From Candidatus Saccharimonadota bacterium (GTDB taxonomy: Bacteria; Bacillota_I; Bacilli_A; Mycoplasmatales; Hepatoplasmataceae): a DNA stretch of 32,000 nucleotides. The notes beneath the pieces were generated by a model. That model saw nothing but the letters and a program-made list of their open reading frames with translations. It made no database searches and was not told where the DNA came from. Shown here one piece after another: positions 7,635 through 26,502 of the stretch. The translations under genes and the position numbers were made by a program. The stretch covers positions 270,001-302,000 of the forward strand of contig AP027133.1 in assembly GCA_027925325.1 (NCBI GenBank). Reading direction: 5' to 3'. Position 1 is the first letter of the stretch; every line of letters begins with the position of its first letter.

Positions 7635-7676
7635 TATAATAATGTTGAATTACTTGATGGAATTAAATGGTATTAA
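7635..7676 (+). promoter_or_regulatory. Candidate promoter elements for the tracrRNA (TATAAT 7635..7640; TGgTATTAA 7668..7676)
   Basis: A consensus -10 hexamer and a weaker extended -10-like element lie just upstream of the anti-repeat region. There is no experimental TSS, and in DNA this AT-rich such matches are common. Confidence 0.25.
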
Positions 7677-7852
7677 ATAATTCATGAATACCAACAAACA
7701 CAACTCAACTTAAATGATTCATGAATACCAACTGGTCAAGATAATGGTTTAGTAACATTTCTATGTGTTACAGATATCTAAGGGTACTCAGGTAACCCTA
7801 AATGTAATCTTCCTGAAATAGAAAACACCTTTTAAAGAGGTGTTTTCTTTTA
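7670..7852 (+). ncRNA. tracrRNA: tracrRNA (5' end uncertain); full anti-repeat 7709..7742, partial upstream anti-repeat copy 7670..7695
   Basis: 7709..7742 can pair with 34 of the 36 nt of the minus-strand CRISPR repeat (26 Watson-Crick pairs plus 8 G.U). Downstream there are three hairpins: 7752..7771 (GTAACA/TGTTAC), 7779..7800 (TAAGGGTAC/GTAACCCTA with a bulge), and terminator 7822..7846 followed by a T-run. This is the canonical layout of anti-repeat, hairpins and terminator. Confidence 0.8.
7822..7852. terminator. Bidirectional intrinsic terminator shared by tracrRNA (+) and csn2 (-)
   Basis: 9-bp stem AAAACACCT (7822..7830) / AGGTGTTTT (7838..7846) with a 7-nt loop. It is followed by TTTTCTTTT on the plus strand and by a T-rich run on the minus strand. 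It overlaps the csn2 stop codon (7850..7852). Confidence 0.7.
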
Positions 7853-17861: not shown

Positions 17862-20800
17862 CTATTCTTGTAATTTTCCTAATCTTGTTATGTTAACAAG
17901 TTTTAATTCTTGTGCCTTTGCAACACCAATTCTTGGCCAGTTTCCAATTATTTTTTCATATTTTGAATCTGATTGTTGTTTTAAATTTGCATTTCCTGCT
18001 AATATAACTTTTCCTAATCCACCTAATCCACGATAAACATACACAATTTCACTATCAGGTAATTTAAATTGTGCATTCCGAAATAATACAAGATTTATTT
18101 TTTGTTTATTCTTTGCATATTCGATCATTTTATTTCGATAAATCGGAATTAATTTATTTTTGTCATCATATTGATATCCAATATATTTAGAAATATCTCA
18201 ATAATTTCCTGCTTTATCTTTAATAAATGAAGATTTTAATTGCTTTGTTTTAGGATCTAATGCTTCTTTTTTTCCAGATGGATTTTGTTCCGCAAGAATT
18301 TGCCCCCTAACTCTTTTATCAATTTTGTAAGATACATAAGGATATTGTTCAATTTTTTTATTGTTTAATTTGGCTCATTCACTAGCCTCAATTGTATTTA
18401 AAAATCCCGGTACCTTATTTTTAATTTTTTCTTTTTTTAATTCATTTGTATTAATATTAAGAATTTCTTTTATAGATTCTTCTTCCTTTCATTTTAATTT
18501 AACAGGAATTAAATTATTTATTTTTTGCGGTAAGTTTTCAATAAGTGGGCTTATTAAATTAAAAATAAATTTATCAGCTTTAAAATCTATCTTTTCTAAT
18601 TTTTGGTTATTTTTAATTCTTTGATCAATTTCATTAATAATGTAAGAGAAAATATCATCTATCTTTTCTTTTAAAAGATCTGCTCTTGTAAAGTTAACGA
18701 TATTAAAATTTGTCATTACTTGATCAATTGCCTTTTTTTGCTTAAATAATTCTTCTTTTACATTAAATTTATCAAGTTTATTTTTGTAAAATTGATTTAC
18801 TAAATAATTATAATATCTAATAATTCTTATGCTTAATTGATAAATTTCAATATGTTCCTTTGAAATCATATTTGAAAGAATAATTGCATCAACGGCATGA
18901 TGAAAAGGAGAAATATCACGTAGCTTTTTATCATCTCCTCATAAACTACCAATTAAAGAATTAGTTGGATTTAATCACATTCTTCTAAAATAAGATGTGA
19001 TTCCTCCCTGTATCTGTAATATTTTTGGAGTTAAAATATTTTTTTTCTTACTGATTTTGGTAAATTCTAATTTAAAATAATCGCTAATATATTTTGTAAT
19101 ATATCTCGTGTCATTTATATCTCTGGTTTCAAAACCCATCTCAGTTGATCTATTTATTGTATCTAAAAATAGATATGATTGCTTTATTTGATTTTTATCA
19201 AATGATTTTTCTATTTTATTTTTTCAATTACTTATAATCTTTGTTGATAAATTTTGACTTTTAAAGTAATCTAAAGGTGTTTTATTATTTTTTAAAGCAT
19301 TGTTTTTTGTTGATGTTACTATTTTATTATTTTTGCTATCATCATTTACTAAAGAATAAGGAGCTATATGATCTATTTGATAATTATTATTTATATCTAA
19401 TATAAATTCTTTTAAATAAATTTTCTCTTTAAGATTTATATCATAGATATCAATCGCATATTGTTCTTTTTTACCTTGTTGATCTATTTGCTGTTCTTTT
19501 CAAATTAGATATTTATTAATATTTTTATTAGAGGGATCTAAATTGTTTTTTTTAAGTTCGATTGCTGCTTCTTCTCTTCTTTTTTGATTTTTATCTTGAT
19601 TATTTCTAATATTTTTTCTGATCTTTTTTTCTGCATAAAGATCTTTAGCAACTTCTATTATTACATTATCAAAATTATTGTATTTTTTAAAAAGATCACG
19701 GACAACCAATCTAATCTGATTAATTGAACGAAAAACAACAGAATTTTTTTGCATATCTTTATCTCTAATCGGTTCAAATTCCTTTGCATTCAAATTAAGT
19801 TTATTGATTTTTTCCTGATCTTTTTTTGCATTTAATCTGTATTGATATTCAGAAATAAGTTCACCTGTTTCTAATTGATTTTTAAGCGCTGATAAAATAA
19901 ATTCACTAGAAGTTGATAGGGTTTTATTTCCTCTTTTTATTCAATCATTATTATTTTTGATTCATTCATAACCTTTTTTATCATCATTAAAAAAATTATC
20001 AATTTCAATTAATTTATTTTTTAATTTTTGTGGTGTTTTATATTTAAATAAAATTTCAGCAATTTTATTTATTTTGCTTTCTTTGATTGAATTTAAAAAA
20101 TTTAAATTAATGTTTAGATTTTTTAAAATAAATTCCTTATTTTCTTTTTTCTTTGCAAAATTATGTAAAAAAAGTCCACTATTTGCAAAACTAATTCCTT
20201 TTAAAATAGGAGGAAGTTGTAATTTATTTTTTTCAAAAATATCATTAATTATTTTTTTATCAAATTTAAAATTTGTAAAATAATTATTAAAAATTTCTTT
20301 TGTGAGAATTTTTATATTTTCATTATCAATATTTTTTTCTTTTTTTAATTTAGAAAATATTTTTGAAGATTCATTTAATATAAAAGAAATATCATTTTCA
20401 ATTGAAAAACAAGATACTCTTTTTTTATTTGGAAAGAATTGACAATATCCTACATTTTCGATAAAGGGTTTATAGTAAAACTGTTTTGAATCTTTTTTGA
20501 GAGAATTTTTTCAAAATTCTTTTATTTTTTGATCATTTGGTCCTGGACCATCTTCGAAATCACGTTGTCTAAAAATTATCTTTTTAATATCTTCCTCTAA
20601 ATTTTTTAATTTTGAATTATATTCAATTTGCTTATCTATAATAGCATCAACTTCAATTTCATAATCTTTTCTATTAAACAAAATTTGATGATTAGTGTAA
20701 AATTCATTAATTTTATCTTGCAAAGTTTTTACTTTTTGCTTTAAATTTGTATTTTTATCAAATTTCAAATCATATTTTAAAATTAGATTATTAACATTTG

Positions 20801-21473
20801 TTTCTATTATTTTAGTTTTTGATTTATCTTCATAAATGTATTTTTCAAATTTTTTTAAATTTAATTTTTTACTTCGATAGATAAATTTTTCGGGAGAATT
20901 AAAATTAAAAAGATTACTTTCAGTAATTGCTAAAATAGGATACTTATATTTAGCAATTAACTCATCACTTTTTTTAATACTTTCTCTTGCATCGTTGTTT
21001 TTTTCTTCAAGATCAGGAATAATAAATTTATTACTATATCCTCTTCTTTTTGCAATATTTATTAATGCAATTAATAATTCTAAATTTGTTAACTTTTCTG
21101 TTAAGCCTTTTTTTCTTAAGATTAAAGGATCAAATATATTATTTTTTAAATAATTTTTTCCATTTAATTTTATTTTTTCACTATGATTACTATAATCTTT
21201 TGCAGATAAAAAATTATTACTATAAAATAAATTTTTTAAATCTTTTATTCTTGTTTTTTTTCGTGAATTTAATCTTCTTCCAGATCTAAAAATTCTTCTT
21301 TCAGATGACTTTGTATCTAATGATTTGCTATCTTCAGGTGAATCTCAAAGTCTAACTCCAAAATCTAATATATCAATTTTTTTTGTATTTTTATTATATT
21401 CAGAAATTGCTCATCCAAGTGAGGTAACCCCGATATCTAATGCTAAAAATTTTTTATTTTGTTCTTTATTCAT
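17862..21473 (-). CDS. cas9: Cas9 (type II-A effector nuclease), 1203 aa, all catalytic motifs present
   Basis: RuvC-I MNKEQNKKFLALDIGVTSLGWAI (Asp codon 21435..21437). Arg-rich bridge helix ERRIFRSGRRLNSRKKTRIKDL. RuvC-II NVIIEVAKDL (Glu 19653..19655). HNH NYQIDHIAPYSL...NKIVTSTKNN..K.NKTP (His 19368..19370). RuvC-III SPFHHAVDAII. The ORF-track fragments starting at 20768, 19793, 18869 and 18128 are all in frame with 21473 (offsets 705, 1680, 2604, 3345). TAG stop at 17862. Confidence 0.95.
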
Positions 21474-21567
21474 TTTCTTTTCTTTAAATATTCTGTCTTT
21501 TATAACAAAAAAATTATATAAAATAGTCTTATTATTTTATATAAAAATAAAAAATTTATTGTTAAAT

Positions 21568-21732
21568 TTATTTATATTTTAAAGCAAATATTAATATTAA
21601 TTTTATTAAAATTTGTTGTCAATAAAACATAATAATTAAGTCAAAAATCATACTAATGATTTCAAATGTTATGACACTTATGACAGTAATAATATTAAAT
21701 ATTATAGATATTAAATTGAAAACAAAATCCAT
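21568..21732 (-). CDS. 54-aa very hydrophobic small protein (MDFVFNLISIIFNIITVISVITFEIISMIFDLIIMFYWQQILIKLILIFALKYK)
   Basis: Consensus SD AGGAGG (21739..21744) 6 nt upstream of ATG 21732, and a candidate -10 TATAAT on the minus strand at 21787..21792. One TGA Trp. TAA stop at 21568. It is missing from the ORF track because of its size and the TGA. Confidence 0.45.
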
Positions 21733-21829
21733 ATTTTTCCTCCTTTTTTTAAATAAAACAATATATTATTGAATATCTTTTTAAAAATTATACATTTTGT
21801 TAATAATGCTTTTTTTAAAATCATTTTAT

Positions 21830-22171
21830 TTAAAATAATTCTTTTTTATTGTCATCTTGATTTTCTTTATCTTCATTAATTTTTTTTGTATCTTCTATGC
21901 TGTTTATGTCTTTAGAGTAATGATTTAAATTTTTGGTAAGAAGATTAATATTTCAAAATAAAAATACTCAAGAAGTAAACATAGTTAATCAAGTTGCTCC
22001 TAATACTCCTTTTTGAAATGCTGTTAATCCATCTTCGTAATAATAACTATCTTTTATATCATTCATATAAATAATTATAGATATTGATAAAGTAAGCATA
22101 ATAATACTAAATAGTATTCTAAATATATTACTTTTAAATTCTTTGTTCCATTTTCTACTTTTTTCCATCAT
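21830..22171 (-). CDS. 113-aa small membrane protein with two predicted TM helices and an acidic/Lys-rich tail
   Basis: ORF 21989..22171 continues through three TGA codons to TAA at 21830 (offset 339). Hydrophobic segments are IFRILFSIIMLTLSISIIIYM and GVLGATWLTMFTSWVFLFW. The tail is SIEDTKKINEDKENQDDNKKELF. The SD is weak. Confidence 0.45.
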
Positions 22172-22240
22172 TTAATTTTCTTAATTCTATTTATAATTTT
22201 TAATTTTAATTCAATATTTTTGTAATTTATTTTAATATTC

Positions 22241-25200
22241 TATCTAAACAACTCATGAATACCAACTGACCAAAACAATTCTCAATAGTTCCCATTTTTT
22301 TTAATTGTCCTAAACAACTCATGAATACCAACTGACCAAAACGGATGTATTCAATCAAACAAAGCATGAACAGTCCTAAACAACTCATGAATACCAACTG
22401 ACCAAAACATAATTCTCAAAGATTCTGTTTAAACATTGGTCCTAAACAACTCATGAATACCAACTGACCAAAACGTTGAAGAAGTTCCTATTTGTCTTTC
22501 AAAAGTCCTAAACAACTCATGAATACCAACTGACCAAAACTGATTACAATGGTGGCAAAAATAAAATCATGTCCTAAACAACTCATGAATACCAACTGAC
22601 CAAAACGTTAAAAAAGGTATTGAGAAAAAACATATTGTCCTAAACAACTCATGAATACCAACTGACCAAAACTTACGGAGATTGGCAACGCTATCGCGCA
22701 ATGTCCTAAACAACTCATGAATACCAACTGACCAAAACGGAGATTGAGAAACAGAGCAAATATTAAAAGTCCTAAACAACTCATGAATACCAACTGACCA
22801 AAACAATAAACAAAAATAGCAGTTAAAATAACTGGTCCTAAACAACTCATGAATACCAACTGACCAAAACATTATTTTGATTCATGGATTAACGCAAAAA
22901 GTCCTAAACAACTCATGAATACCAACTGACCAAAACCGAATAAACGAATAAAAAAATTAATCAAACGTCCTAAACAACTCATGAATACCAACTGACCAAA
23001 ACCTTCTGATCTGTTCGCCTCTTTTTAATTTCGTCCTAAACAACTCATGAATACCAACTGACCAAAACTGTGATGGTCTTTATTGGTCAATTTGCCCCGT
23101 CCTAAACAACTCATGAATACCAACTGACCAAAACAAATTATTTTTAGTTAAATTAGTAAAATTAGTCCTAAACAACTCATGAATACCAACTGACCAAAAC
23201 TGCTATTCTAATTCCATCTTTGTGTTCAAAGTCCTAAACAACTCATGAATACCAACTGACCAAAACATACCCATAATCGAGATTATAAATTTCCTCGTCC
23301 TAAACAACTCATGAATACCAACTGACCAAAACTGTATTGCCAAAGACGCCAAACTAATGAATGTCCTAAACAACTCATGAATACCAACTGACCAAAACCT
23401 TGCCCTTTCTCGCCCTTTTTCCTCCTTAGTCCTAAACAACTCATGAATACCAACTGACCAAAACATTTCTCAGTATCATATTCTCAAGTAGGAGGTCCTA
23501 AACAACTCATGAATACCAACTGACCAAAACATCTTTGGCGTTTTTATGATGGTCTCAATTGTCCTAAACAACTCATGAATACCAACTGACCAAAACATCA
23601 ATGTTGATTAAATTCTTTTTTTGTCCGTCCTAAACAACTCATGAATACCAACTGACCAAAACAAAATTGAACAGATCAGAAAGATTAAAGGGGTCCTAAA
23701 CAACTCATGAATACCAACTGACCAAAACAGACGAATTAATTGGCAACGTCGAACAAATGTCCTAAACAACTCATGAATACCAACTGACCAAAACCATTGG
23801 TTGATTGAGGCAAAAAAAACGACGGTCCTAAACAACTCATGAATACCAACTGACCAAAACTCCTATTTCGTCATTATCAAAACTAAAAGTGTCCTAAACA
23901 ACTCATGAATACCAACTGACCAAAACTATAACCTAGAAGGGGATTATTCTTACTATGTCCTAAACAACTCATGAATACCAACTGACCAAAACGAAGGAAG
24001 GAGGAGGATTAGCAGACCTCGAGTCCTAAACAACTCATGAATACCAACTGACCAAAACAATTGGATTAGGAATGTTGTGTTGCTTTCTGTCCTAAACAAC
24101 TCATGAATACCAACTGACCAAAACTTGATCGTAATTTCACTTTTCGTTGTTGTAGTCCTAAACAACTCATGAATACCAACTGACCAAAACACAAATAAAA
24201 ACAATGTGTTATAATGATTAGTCCTAAACAACTCATGAATACCAACTGACCAAAACAATATTGTATATAGAAGCAATATCGTTTTCGTCCTAAACAACTC
24301 ATGAATACCAACTGACCAAAACCAACATCGACGGCGATTATTCTTACGAAATGTCCTAAACAACTCATGAATACCAACTGACCAAAACGTCATTATCAAA
24401 ATTGAATTTATCATTATTGTCCTAAACAACTCATGAATACCAACTGACCAAAACGTCCTCAATCGCTTCGATTAATTCGCTCTCGTCCTAAACAACTCAT
24501 GAATACCAACTGACCAAAACTGTTAATAGATTATCTAATATTTCACTTTTGTCCTAAACAACTCATGAATACCAACTGACCAAAACTACATCAATTGTCT
24601 TAGCAATATATTTTGCGTCCTAAACAACTCATGAATACCAACTGACCAAAACACCATCATTAATTATTTCTTTTGCTTTTTCGTCCTAAACAACTCATGA
24701 ATACCAACTGACCAAAACATGCTCCGTCATATTCTGGTGATTGTTATCGTCCTAAACAACTCATGAATACCAACTGACCAAAACTTATCTATATCGCTTG
24801 TTATCATATGTACAGTCCTAAACAACTCATGAATACCAACTGACCAAAACAAATACAATAATCATAAGAGCAAGAGGGATGTCCTAAACAACTCATGAAT
24901 ACCAACTGACCAAAACCATATTTTTGATTATATAGATTATTTTTATGTCCTAAACAACTCATGAATACCAACTGACCAAAACAATTCTCAATTATCTCCA
25001 ATTTTTTTAATTGTCCTAAACAACTCATGAATACCAACTGACCAAAACAAAAAATGTTAAAATTATTAATAAAAAAAAGTCCTAAACAACTCATGAATAC
25101 CAACTGACCAAAACTAATATCATTTTCTATATTATCAATTAATTGTCCTAAACAACTCATGAATACCAACTGACCAAAACTCCTCCAAAATTGGTGTTTT

Positions 25201-26502
25201 TTTGGACATTGTCCTAAACAACTCATGAATACCAACTGACCAAAACAAGGAAAAATAAAGGAATTTAATCATTACTGTCCTAAACAACTCATGAATACCA
25301 ACTGACCAAAACTTTTATAAAATAATCATTTTCATTTTCAATGTCCTAAACAACTCATGAATACCAACTGACCAAAACTAAATGAAAAAGACTTTGAAGT
25401 AGCAAAATTAGTCCTAAACAACTCATGAATACCAACTGACCAAAACCTTTTTTATTATTAATTAATATTGGGTATTGTCCTAAACAACTCATGAATACCA
25501 ACTGACCAAAACCCAAATCTTCATAATCATTATAATTTAATTGTCCTAAACAACTCATGAATACCAACTGACCAAAACATGCTTTTAAAAGTAATTAAAT
25601 CTCATTCAGTCCTAAACAACTCATGAATACCAACTGACCAAAACCATTTAAAAACATTCATACCGGAGAAAGATGTCCTAAACAACTCATGAATACCAAC
25701 TGACCAAAACTTTACGTTTACGTGTTCTTCGTAGATTAATGTCCTAAACAACTCATGAATACCAACTGACCAAAACCGATAATCTCTATCTTTTCCAATT
25801 AAAAAAGTCCTAAACAACTCATGAATACCAACTGACCAAAACCTATCGAGTTATGACTTGGACCACCAAATCGTCCTAAACAACTCATGAATACCAACTG
25901 ACCAAAACATAATAAAAAGATCCGCTTTGGAAAATGAAGTCCTAAACAACTCATGAATACCAACTGACCAAAACACAAACTAAGGAAACAAAAAATAATA
26001 ATATGTCCTAAACAACTCATGAATACCAACTGACCAAAACGTTATTGTTATCAAATCGATATTATCATTTGTCCTAAACAACTCATGAATACCAACTGAC
26101 CAAAACAGCAATTCTAAACGGACTTACTTTAATGGTGTCCTAAACAACTCATGAATACCAACTGACCAAAACATTATATTTACGTTATTGAAGAACATAA
26201 AAGTCCTAAACAACTCATGAATACCAACTGACCAAAACATATATAAATGTATGTGTGGTTTTTTTAATGTCCTAAACAACTCATGAATACCAACTGACCA
26301 AAACACTATTTCTTATGACCCAGGTGATTTTGAAGTCCTAAACAACTCATGAATACCAACTGACCAAAACACAAGTATTATAGTAGAAATTTTTACAGTA
26401 GTCCTAAACAACTCATGAATACCAACTGACCAAAACACCAGAAGTAAAGCTATCTGATTCTATTTCGTCCTAAACAACTCATGAATACCAACTGACCAAA
26501 AC
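22241..26502 (-). CRISPR. Type II-A CRISPR array: 65 x 36-bp repeats, 64 spacers
   Basis: Plus-strand repeat is GTCCTAAACAACTCATGAATACCAACTGACCAAAAC; transcribed sense is GTTTTGGTCAGTTGGTATTCATGAGTTGTTTAGGAC. I enumerated every unit: 63 spacers are 30 nt and one is 32 nt (25379..25410). I noticed no variation in 64 of the repeats. The leftmost repeat (22241..22276, TATCTAAAC...) has 3 substitutions, marking the trailer end. Orientation is confirmed by tracrRNA complementarity. Confidence 0.98.

Follow-up and report, generated by a model that had tools for sequence, protein, structure and literature searches.

Csx27 and Csx28 of type VI-B systems are membrane proteins linked to CRISPR loci, and addiction modules of the CreTA type guard the cas operons of type I systems, where CreT is an RNA toxin that is held under a crRNA-like guide. 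Known type II anti-CRISPRs are small, soluble proteins which bind Cas9 and are carried by mobile elements, usually with an aca gene of the HTH type close by. A small two-helix membrane architecture is found in many abortive-infection (Abi) or exclusion proteins, and class II holins are also small proteins, built of two membrane helices and a C-terminal tail that is highly charged. Type I toxin peptides, such as Hok, Fst, TisB and TxpA, are hydrophobic and shorter than 60 aa. Neighbourhood analysis has further linked CorA, membrane CARF proteins and small transmembrane proteins of type III and type I-E loci to CRISPR systems (bioRxiv 10.1101/270033). What defines these linked proteins is that they occur stably with cas genes in many genomes, and they belong mostly to type III loci, with no type II example among them (10.1101/270033).

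Here we describe a stretch of 32,000 nucleotides (the window) from the genome of 'Candidatus Hepatoplasma scabrum', an isopod-gut mollicute with a genome of 606,194 bp, 24.7% GC and genetic code 4. The minus strand of the window carries, in this order, the leader, a 65-repeat CRISPR array, ORF113, ORF54 and cas9 (Table 1), and the 767-bp spacer between the array and cas9 (21474-22240) holds both small ORFs. A preliminary description of this DNA had placed two small genes on the cas strand between array and cas9, and both reading frames were confirmed under translation table 4. It had also held that a standard-code call would miss or truncate them, which is the case because the in-frame TGA codons shorten ORF113 to 60 aa and ORF54 to 37 aa under table 11. 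In our reading, which we hold with moderate confidence, the two ORFs are orphan small membrane-protein genes that arrived by a lineage-specific insertion of about 750 bp and do not belong to the type II-A machinery.

Table 1. Features of the array-cas9 region, given in positions of the window
Feature	Position	Strand	Remarks
cas9	17862..21473	-	1203 aa, ATG at 21473; TIGR01865 9e-117; RuvC-I, HNH and RuvC-III motifs present
cas9-proximal direct-repeat copy	21479..21498		imperfect, 20 nt; 5 nt from the cas9 ATG
ORF54	21568..21732	-	54 aa under table 4, one in-frame TGA; very hydrophobic peptide
TTGACA-17 nt-TAATAT promoter-like site	21594..21622	-	inside the 3' part of ORF54, points at cas9; 10/12 matches
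Shine-Dalgarno AGGAGG	21739..21744	-	6 nt ahead of the ORF54 ATG
TATAAT, preceded by TG	21787..21792	-	candidate -10 box for ORF54; not significant alone in 16% GC DNA
ORF113	21830..22171	-	113 aa under table 4, three in-frame TGA (Trp); predicted small membrane protein
array-proximal direct-repeat copy	22226..22245		overlaps the first 5 nt of the degenerate terminal CRISPR repeat
degenerate terminal repeat	22241	-	last repeat of the array, 3 mismatches
CRISPR array	22241..26502	-	65 repeats of 36 nt, 64 spacers
array leader	~26503 onward	-	on the 26503 side of the array

The genes cas1 and cas2, a gene for a 361-aa ATPase-like protein at the position of csn2 and a candidate anti-repeat/tracrRNA are located 7.6 kb away, past trehalose and glycerol genes. 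This separation of the cas1/cas2 side from cas9 has already been published for the genus Hepatoplasma (PMC3942034; PMC10928387). The tracrRNA candidate (window positions 7670-7742, plus strand) has a duplicated anti-repeat, with neighbouring anti-repeat-like segments at 7670 and 7707 that each match the complement of the repeat at 26 of 36 positions. Both segments adjoin the csn2-position gene and lie upstream of a hairpin followed by a T-run at about 7824-7850. A tracrRNA inside the array-cas9 spacer was considered and rejected, as the spacer contains no anti-repeat and the best one is that of the distant candidate. Another structured RNA in the spacer was rejected as well, with zero Rfam matches.

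ORF113 is a real gene, non-random and protein-like. Dinucleotide shuffling of the 767-bp spacer gave a reading frame of at least 113 aa in one of 3000 trials (P=0.0003), and the codon log-odds score of ORF113 (0.19) equals the mean of the other intergenic ORFs of 90-149 codons and lies above about 90% of the spurious ORFs of the same size. It is also present, as a called gene, in a collection of 5.8 billion proteins. A six-frame genome search found a homologue, the 91-aa P0003, in a sister genome of the same genus (G003) with E=1.5e-7; composition-corrected BLASTP put the pair at 8e-5 and 33% identity (33-35% overall). The strongest conservation in their alignment was observed at codon position 2, and a synonymous-site pattern is present in ORF113: 9 of the 32 identical aligned residues use different codons, including AGT/TCT for serine and TGA/TGG for tryptophan. 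A single strong transmembrane segment was observed at residues 14-39 while residues 55-79 are uncharged, the N-terminus is basic and the C-terminal tail is of mixed charge. AlphaFold2, run on the two-sequence alignment, predicts a helical hairpin of helices 2-42 and 47-112 with a mean pLDDT of 77. The product is likely to be a helical-hairpin membrane protein with both ends in the cytoplasm, as the basic N-terminus and the charged C-terminal tail suggest.

The family to which ORF113 belongs is very small. An exhaustive HMMER search with the two-sequence profile returned two members among 1.84 billion representative proteins, and no homologue beyond P0003 was found by a word-indexed search of 5.8 billion proteins, by DNA-pattern scans of metagenome and GTDB genome contigs or, among accepted matches, by a profile search of 14 family genomes. 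Comparison with the ESM Atlas gave a best score of 0.83, which is at the chance level, and the predicted fold matched generic hairpins only in BFVD, where the best match (to an uncharacterised protein) had E=0.027 and none fell below E=0.001. Neither ORF113 nor ORF54 gave a meaningful E-value in Pfam, NCBIfam, PADLOC or PHROGs. The earlier remark that neither protein resembles a known Cas protein therefore agrees with the curated Cas profiles, where no family of Pfam, NCBIfam or PADLOC takes in either of the two.

Two other proteins with two transmembrane segments were compared with ORF113 and set aside. The first is a 116-aa protein of the relative G001, encoded between pgsA and cinA, which matched ORF113 with E=0.003-0.004; it is treated as a different family because its orthologue at the same site in the present genome (G000) is a 64-aa protein with one transmembrane segment. 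This 64-aa protein is conserved, has an AGGAG Shine-Dalgarno sequence and is located at G000:C1:97335-97529 (L046 1480-1674, plus strand). The second is a 122-aa ORF of Ca. H. crinochetorum Av (L023 10541-10909, plus strand), which runs convergently towards the 3' end of cas9 and is unrelated to ORF113 (E=0.63 and 1.6).

The preliminary description had offered toxin or abortive-infection effectors, regulators of Cas9, phage-exclusion factors and unrelated cargo as roles for the two products. Comparison with other cas9 loci favours unrelated cargo and leaves the CRISPR-linked roles unsupported. The closest Cas9 (64% identity) is that of Ca. Hepatoplasma crinochetorum Av (G002), where the same cas9-array-RCC1 synteny is found and the distance from the cas9 ATG to the last repeat is 57 bp, without small ORFs. 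The ORF113 profile found no homologue in this genome or in G001, both of which have a full CRISPR-Cas system, and no analogous small transmembrane ORF was observed at the array-cas9 junction of nine other mollicute cas9 loci. The sister genome which holds the sole homologue no longer has cas9, cas1 or an array. Between its glpO and RCC1-repeat genes lies a 63-aa C-terminal scar of cas9 (71% identical), directly followed by an array remnant of about 190 bp or about three repeat units (both together at G003:C1:53266-53656; L026 8267-8657), and a search of G003 for cas1 found none.

P0003 is located about 200 kb from this scar, between a 234-aa gene and the genes of a type II restriction endonuclease (REase; PADLOC 3e-24) and its partner methyltransferase (MTase), an N4/N6 methylase. 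Measured by the refuting conditions of the preliminary description, the CRISPR-linked roles fail for ORF113: its only homologue has no CRISPR locus near it, its genome being devoid of cas9, cas1 and array, and the closest cas9-array junction is too short for such genes. Co-occurrence of ORF113 with cas9 was looked for and did not emerge, as one of the two family members is at a CRISPR locus and none is at the nearest cas9 loci. The homologues of a CRISPR-linked accessory are expected mostly beside cas genes or arrays (10.1101/270033), which is not the distribution of ORF113, and ORF54 has no homologues. A role of ORF113 and ORF54 as a conserved part of the CRISPR machinery is therefore not supported.

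The neighbourhood of P0003 is itself variable. The gene is a stand-alone transcription unit which is convergent with the REase gene, and this site in G003 contains two gains, an ion-channel gene and an HNH gene, relative to the syntenic region of the present genome (491-502 kb). The restriction-modification neighbourhood is also rearranged between the two species (L009 6442-13305 in G003 against G000:C1:493611-498031), and on the other side of the REase/MTase pair a 365-aa gene of unknown function is only 41% identical between them.

The segment with both ORFs is bracketed by the two copies of the direct repeat, which are 17/20 identical and 747 nt apart. A match of this quality between the two boundary 40-mers has a P of about 0.02-0.03, judged from shuffles and from random AT-rich genomic 40-mers. 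The repeat at both ends and the short junction of Ca. H. crinochetorum Av (57 bp) suggest that the 747-bp segment is an insertion which would have duplicated a short sequence upstream of cas9. Insertion and deletion are not strictly polarised, as the 57-bp junction aligns to neither end of the spacer above chance, and G001 provides no outgroup for the junction because the order there is cas9 and then array. Matches of the 767-bp spacer elsewhere in the genome were of AT-rich low-complexity sequence only, with no repeated or mobile DNA. Furthermore, ORF113 and P0003 share 33-35% identity whereas the neighbouring orthologues of the two genomes share 71-88%, so that the family is either evolving very fast or comes from a mobile pool (xenology).

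Under the insertion reading, about 750 bp would have entered between the end of the array trailer and cas9 in Ca. H. scabrum, and the two genes would have been drawn from the flexible, fast-evolving gene pool of the genus. The position next to cas9 would be the landing place of a variable-region insertion and both products would be independent of Cas9, while the relative of ORF113 in the sister species would occupy a different variable spot, beside restriction-modification genes. Several observations count against this reading, among them the chance-level alignment of the 57-bp junction. Both members of the ORF113 family abut defence genes (CRISPR-cas9 in one genome and type II restriction-modification in the other), which may exceed a hot-spot effect, with n=2. 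The direct repeat is a match of just 17/20 in AT-rich DNA. Finally, ORF54 could be a chance ORF.

This last point leads to the alternative which survives best, namely that ORF113 is the only gene and that ORF54 is a chance frame over the promoter or 5' region of cas9, with a fortuitous AGGAGG. We regard it as a real possibility and ORF54 as probably a genuine gene. The ribosome-binding site of ORF54 had been called exceptional, and the genome bears this out: AGGAGG occurs 96 times on both strands, and it has an ATG 4-10 nt downstream at 16 sites only, which argues against chance. Eight of the 16 head ORFs of at least 100 aa and seven head ORFs of at most 16 aa, with ORF54 as the lone intermediate. 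The seven short sites also lend something to the chance frame, as the probability that one of them would reach 54 codons by chance is estimated at roughly 0.1-0.25. Small intergenic ORFs with an AGGAG-type Shine-Dalgarno sequence were, when their sequences were read, nearly all found to be ribosomal or other conserved small proteins, which counts against a fortuitous signal.

Length alone gives no support to ORF54, because an ORF of at least 54 aa was found in 12% of the dinucleotide shuffles of the spacer, as the chance frame would have it. Composition speaks for a gene. The peptide has a GRAVY of 1.69 with two hydrophobic segments and six charged residues only, and its hydrophobicity is carried by T at the second codon position, where T makes up 64% as compared with 33% at the first. 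None of 400 chance ORFs obtained by shuffling the spacer exceeded its GRAVY and position-2 T, and the share that exceeded them was 1.4-2.6% among ORFs of similar length in the real genome and 3% and 5.5%, respectively, among chance ORFs with the base composition of ORF54 itself, which leaves it in the top 3-5% even at its own composition. The codon score, on the other hand, ranks at the 1st-2nd percentile among real genes and falls within the spurious range, as expected of a chance frame. The same holds for the lack of homologues in 60 relatives and in the 5.8-billion-protein collection, from which ORF54 itself is absent, and for the lack of annotation in the source record. A conserved ORF54 frame was sought in relatives and none was found, nor was any hydrophobic small ORF with a Shine-Dalgarno sequence observed in 107 kb of the relatives' loci. 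A 54-aa ORF just after P0003 in G003 was considered as a counterpart and rejected, as it is antisense to the REase gene and unrelated.

ORF54 had been credited with a candidate -10 box of its own; a TATAAT is indeed present ahead of the gene (Table 1), but the total number of promoter-like matches in the region is at the level of shuffles. The best -35/-10 match of the region is the TTGACA-17-TAATAT site, whose position inside ORF54 and direction towards cas9 are in line with the chance frame. An AU-only hairpin with a U7 run was also observed between ORF54 and cas9 (window positions 21507-21544, minus strand), which coincides in part with a TATAAT and may act as a weak terminator or belong to the cas9 promoter; its fold is not significant (z=-1.7). 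If ORF54 is a gene, its product would most likely be translated very efficiently from the perfect Shine-Dalgarno sequence to give a hydrophobic micropeptide that lies wholly within the membrane.

A further alternative, which we consider unlikely, makes the ORF113 family (alone or together with ORF54) a small membrane effector or an exclusion factor which would accompany defence loci at large. Superinfection exclusion and an abortive-infection depolarisation are examples of how such a module would work at the membrane. The placement of the two family members beside CRISPR-cas9 and beside the REase/MTase pair is what this alternative would predict, and the divergence of the family relative to its neighbours and the two-helix architecture predicted by AlphaFold2, as in many Abi and exclusion proteins, are consistent with it. 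However, the pattern consists of two members, and the gene in G003 stands alone, convergent with the REase gene, at a spot which is variable in general. The module would also have to be reconciled with the lack of any PADLOC or PHROG match and with the lack of ORF113 in Ca. H. crinochetorum Av and G001 despite their full CRISPR-Cas systems. Slightly less probable again is the broader proposal that the 747-bp cassette is a new small membrane module which tracks defence loci and would work in one of two ways, as a membrane effector or exclusion factor, or by stabilising (in the manner of a toxin) or damping the cas9-array unit. If this minority reading were true, the cassette would be the first membrane accessory to be associated with a type II system, and its stabilising or damping form could account for the tolerance of a perfect self-targeting spacer directed at an essential aminoacyl-tRNA synthetase (aaRS) gene.

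It is improbable that ORF54 is an addiction element, similar to type I toxins, which stabilises the cas9-array segment that sister lineages delete. The 54-aa length and extreme hydrophobicity of ORF54 place it within the range of type I toxins, and its very strong Shine-Dalgarno sequence is also suggestive. In addition, a loss pressure on the cas9-array segment exists because the same chromosomal segment is deleted in G003. On the other side, there is no unusual mRNA folding that would sequester the Shine-Dalgarno sequence (z=-0.22), the antisense promoter-like site is weak (9/12 matches, at chance frequency), no Rfam family matches, and no spacer or repeat-like guide with seed complementarity to the region was found. 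The two hydrophobic segments of ORF54 and its near lack of a polar tail are also atypical for type I toxins.

One spacer of the array matches the chromosome of its own host. This 32-nt spacer (25379-25410), which is the 17th from the leader, is identical at 32/32 positions to G000:C1:21169-21200 (L055 7170-7201), within a gene for a 497-aa class II aminoacyl-tRNA synthetase of the Lys/Asn/Asp type, and 16 younger spacers lie on its leader side. The tolerance of this spacer needs an explanation because the catalytic motifs of Cas9 look intact. The 3' flank of the self-protospacer on the crRNA-sense strand is AATTATCT. Either AATTATCT does not serve as a PAM, or interference is weak or switched off, or a sibling strain was the source of the spacer. 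Other mollicutes whose systems look intact have been reported to carry self-targeting spacers (PMC6882279). The spacer keeps a small probability for the damping of Cas9 by one of the small proteins, without singling out ORF113 or ORF54.

That ORF113, ORF54 or both act as a chromosomal self-inhibitor or regulator of Cas9 is very improbable: the self-match with its 16 later acquisitions, the intact motifs and the insert that parts cas9 from its array-proximal upstream region would suit it, but the homologue of ORF113 is retained in a genome where CRISPR-Cas is lacking altogether, the self-target may simply be without a PAM, such spacers are reported from other mollicutes, and both products are predicted membrane proteins with no adjacent HTH or phage genes whereas known type II anti-CRISPRs are soluble and carried by mobile elements.

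The insertion of orphan cargo therefore remains the reading that we prefer. It would make this locus a documented case of a lineage-specific insertion that parts cas9 from an array whose end lies just upstream. ORF113 defines a two-member orphan family of membrane proteins, and ORF54 is a probable unannotated micropeptide gene which has the strongest ribosome-binding site of its class in the 606-kb genome. A function that is assigned from the position in a CRISPR locus may be misleading where defence loci coincide with insertion hot spots.

Against this background the locus can be compared with the known systems. Type I toxins resemble ORF54 in their length of less than 60 aa, their hydrophobicity and their strong ribosome-binding sites, and they differ from it in that ORF54 has two hydrophobic segments and no detectable antisense RNA signal, structured mRNA or homologue. 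CreTA modules share with this locus a potentially toxic small element inside a CRISPR-cas locus; however, no guide-like match was found to ORF113, ORF54 or the cas9 upstream region, and the lack of any spacer with a seed match near them leaves a control similar to CreTA or tracr-L without support. ORF113 is similar to class II holins in its small size, its two membrane helices and its highly charged C-terminal tail, but it lacks a lysis cassette or phage context, its host has no cell wall, it matched no PHROG at E<=1, and its neighbours are the array and ORF54/cas9. The membrane proteins that are linked to CRISPR systems are, like the two products described here, small predicted membrane proteins encoded within a CRISPR-cas locus, and they differ in that only one of the two members of the ORF113 family is at such a locus and the nearest cas9 loci have none. 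The orphan small membrane proteins of variable mollicute regions are alike in being short, helical, AT-biased, confined to one genus, located at a strain-variable junction and without a domain match. They form a description and not a family, and the present case is distinguished among them by a gene that splits the array from cas9 and by a second, unannotated ORF at its side.
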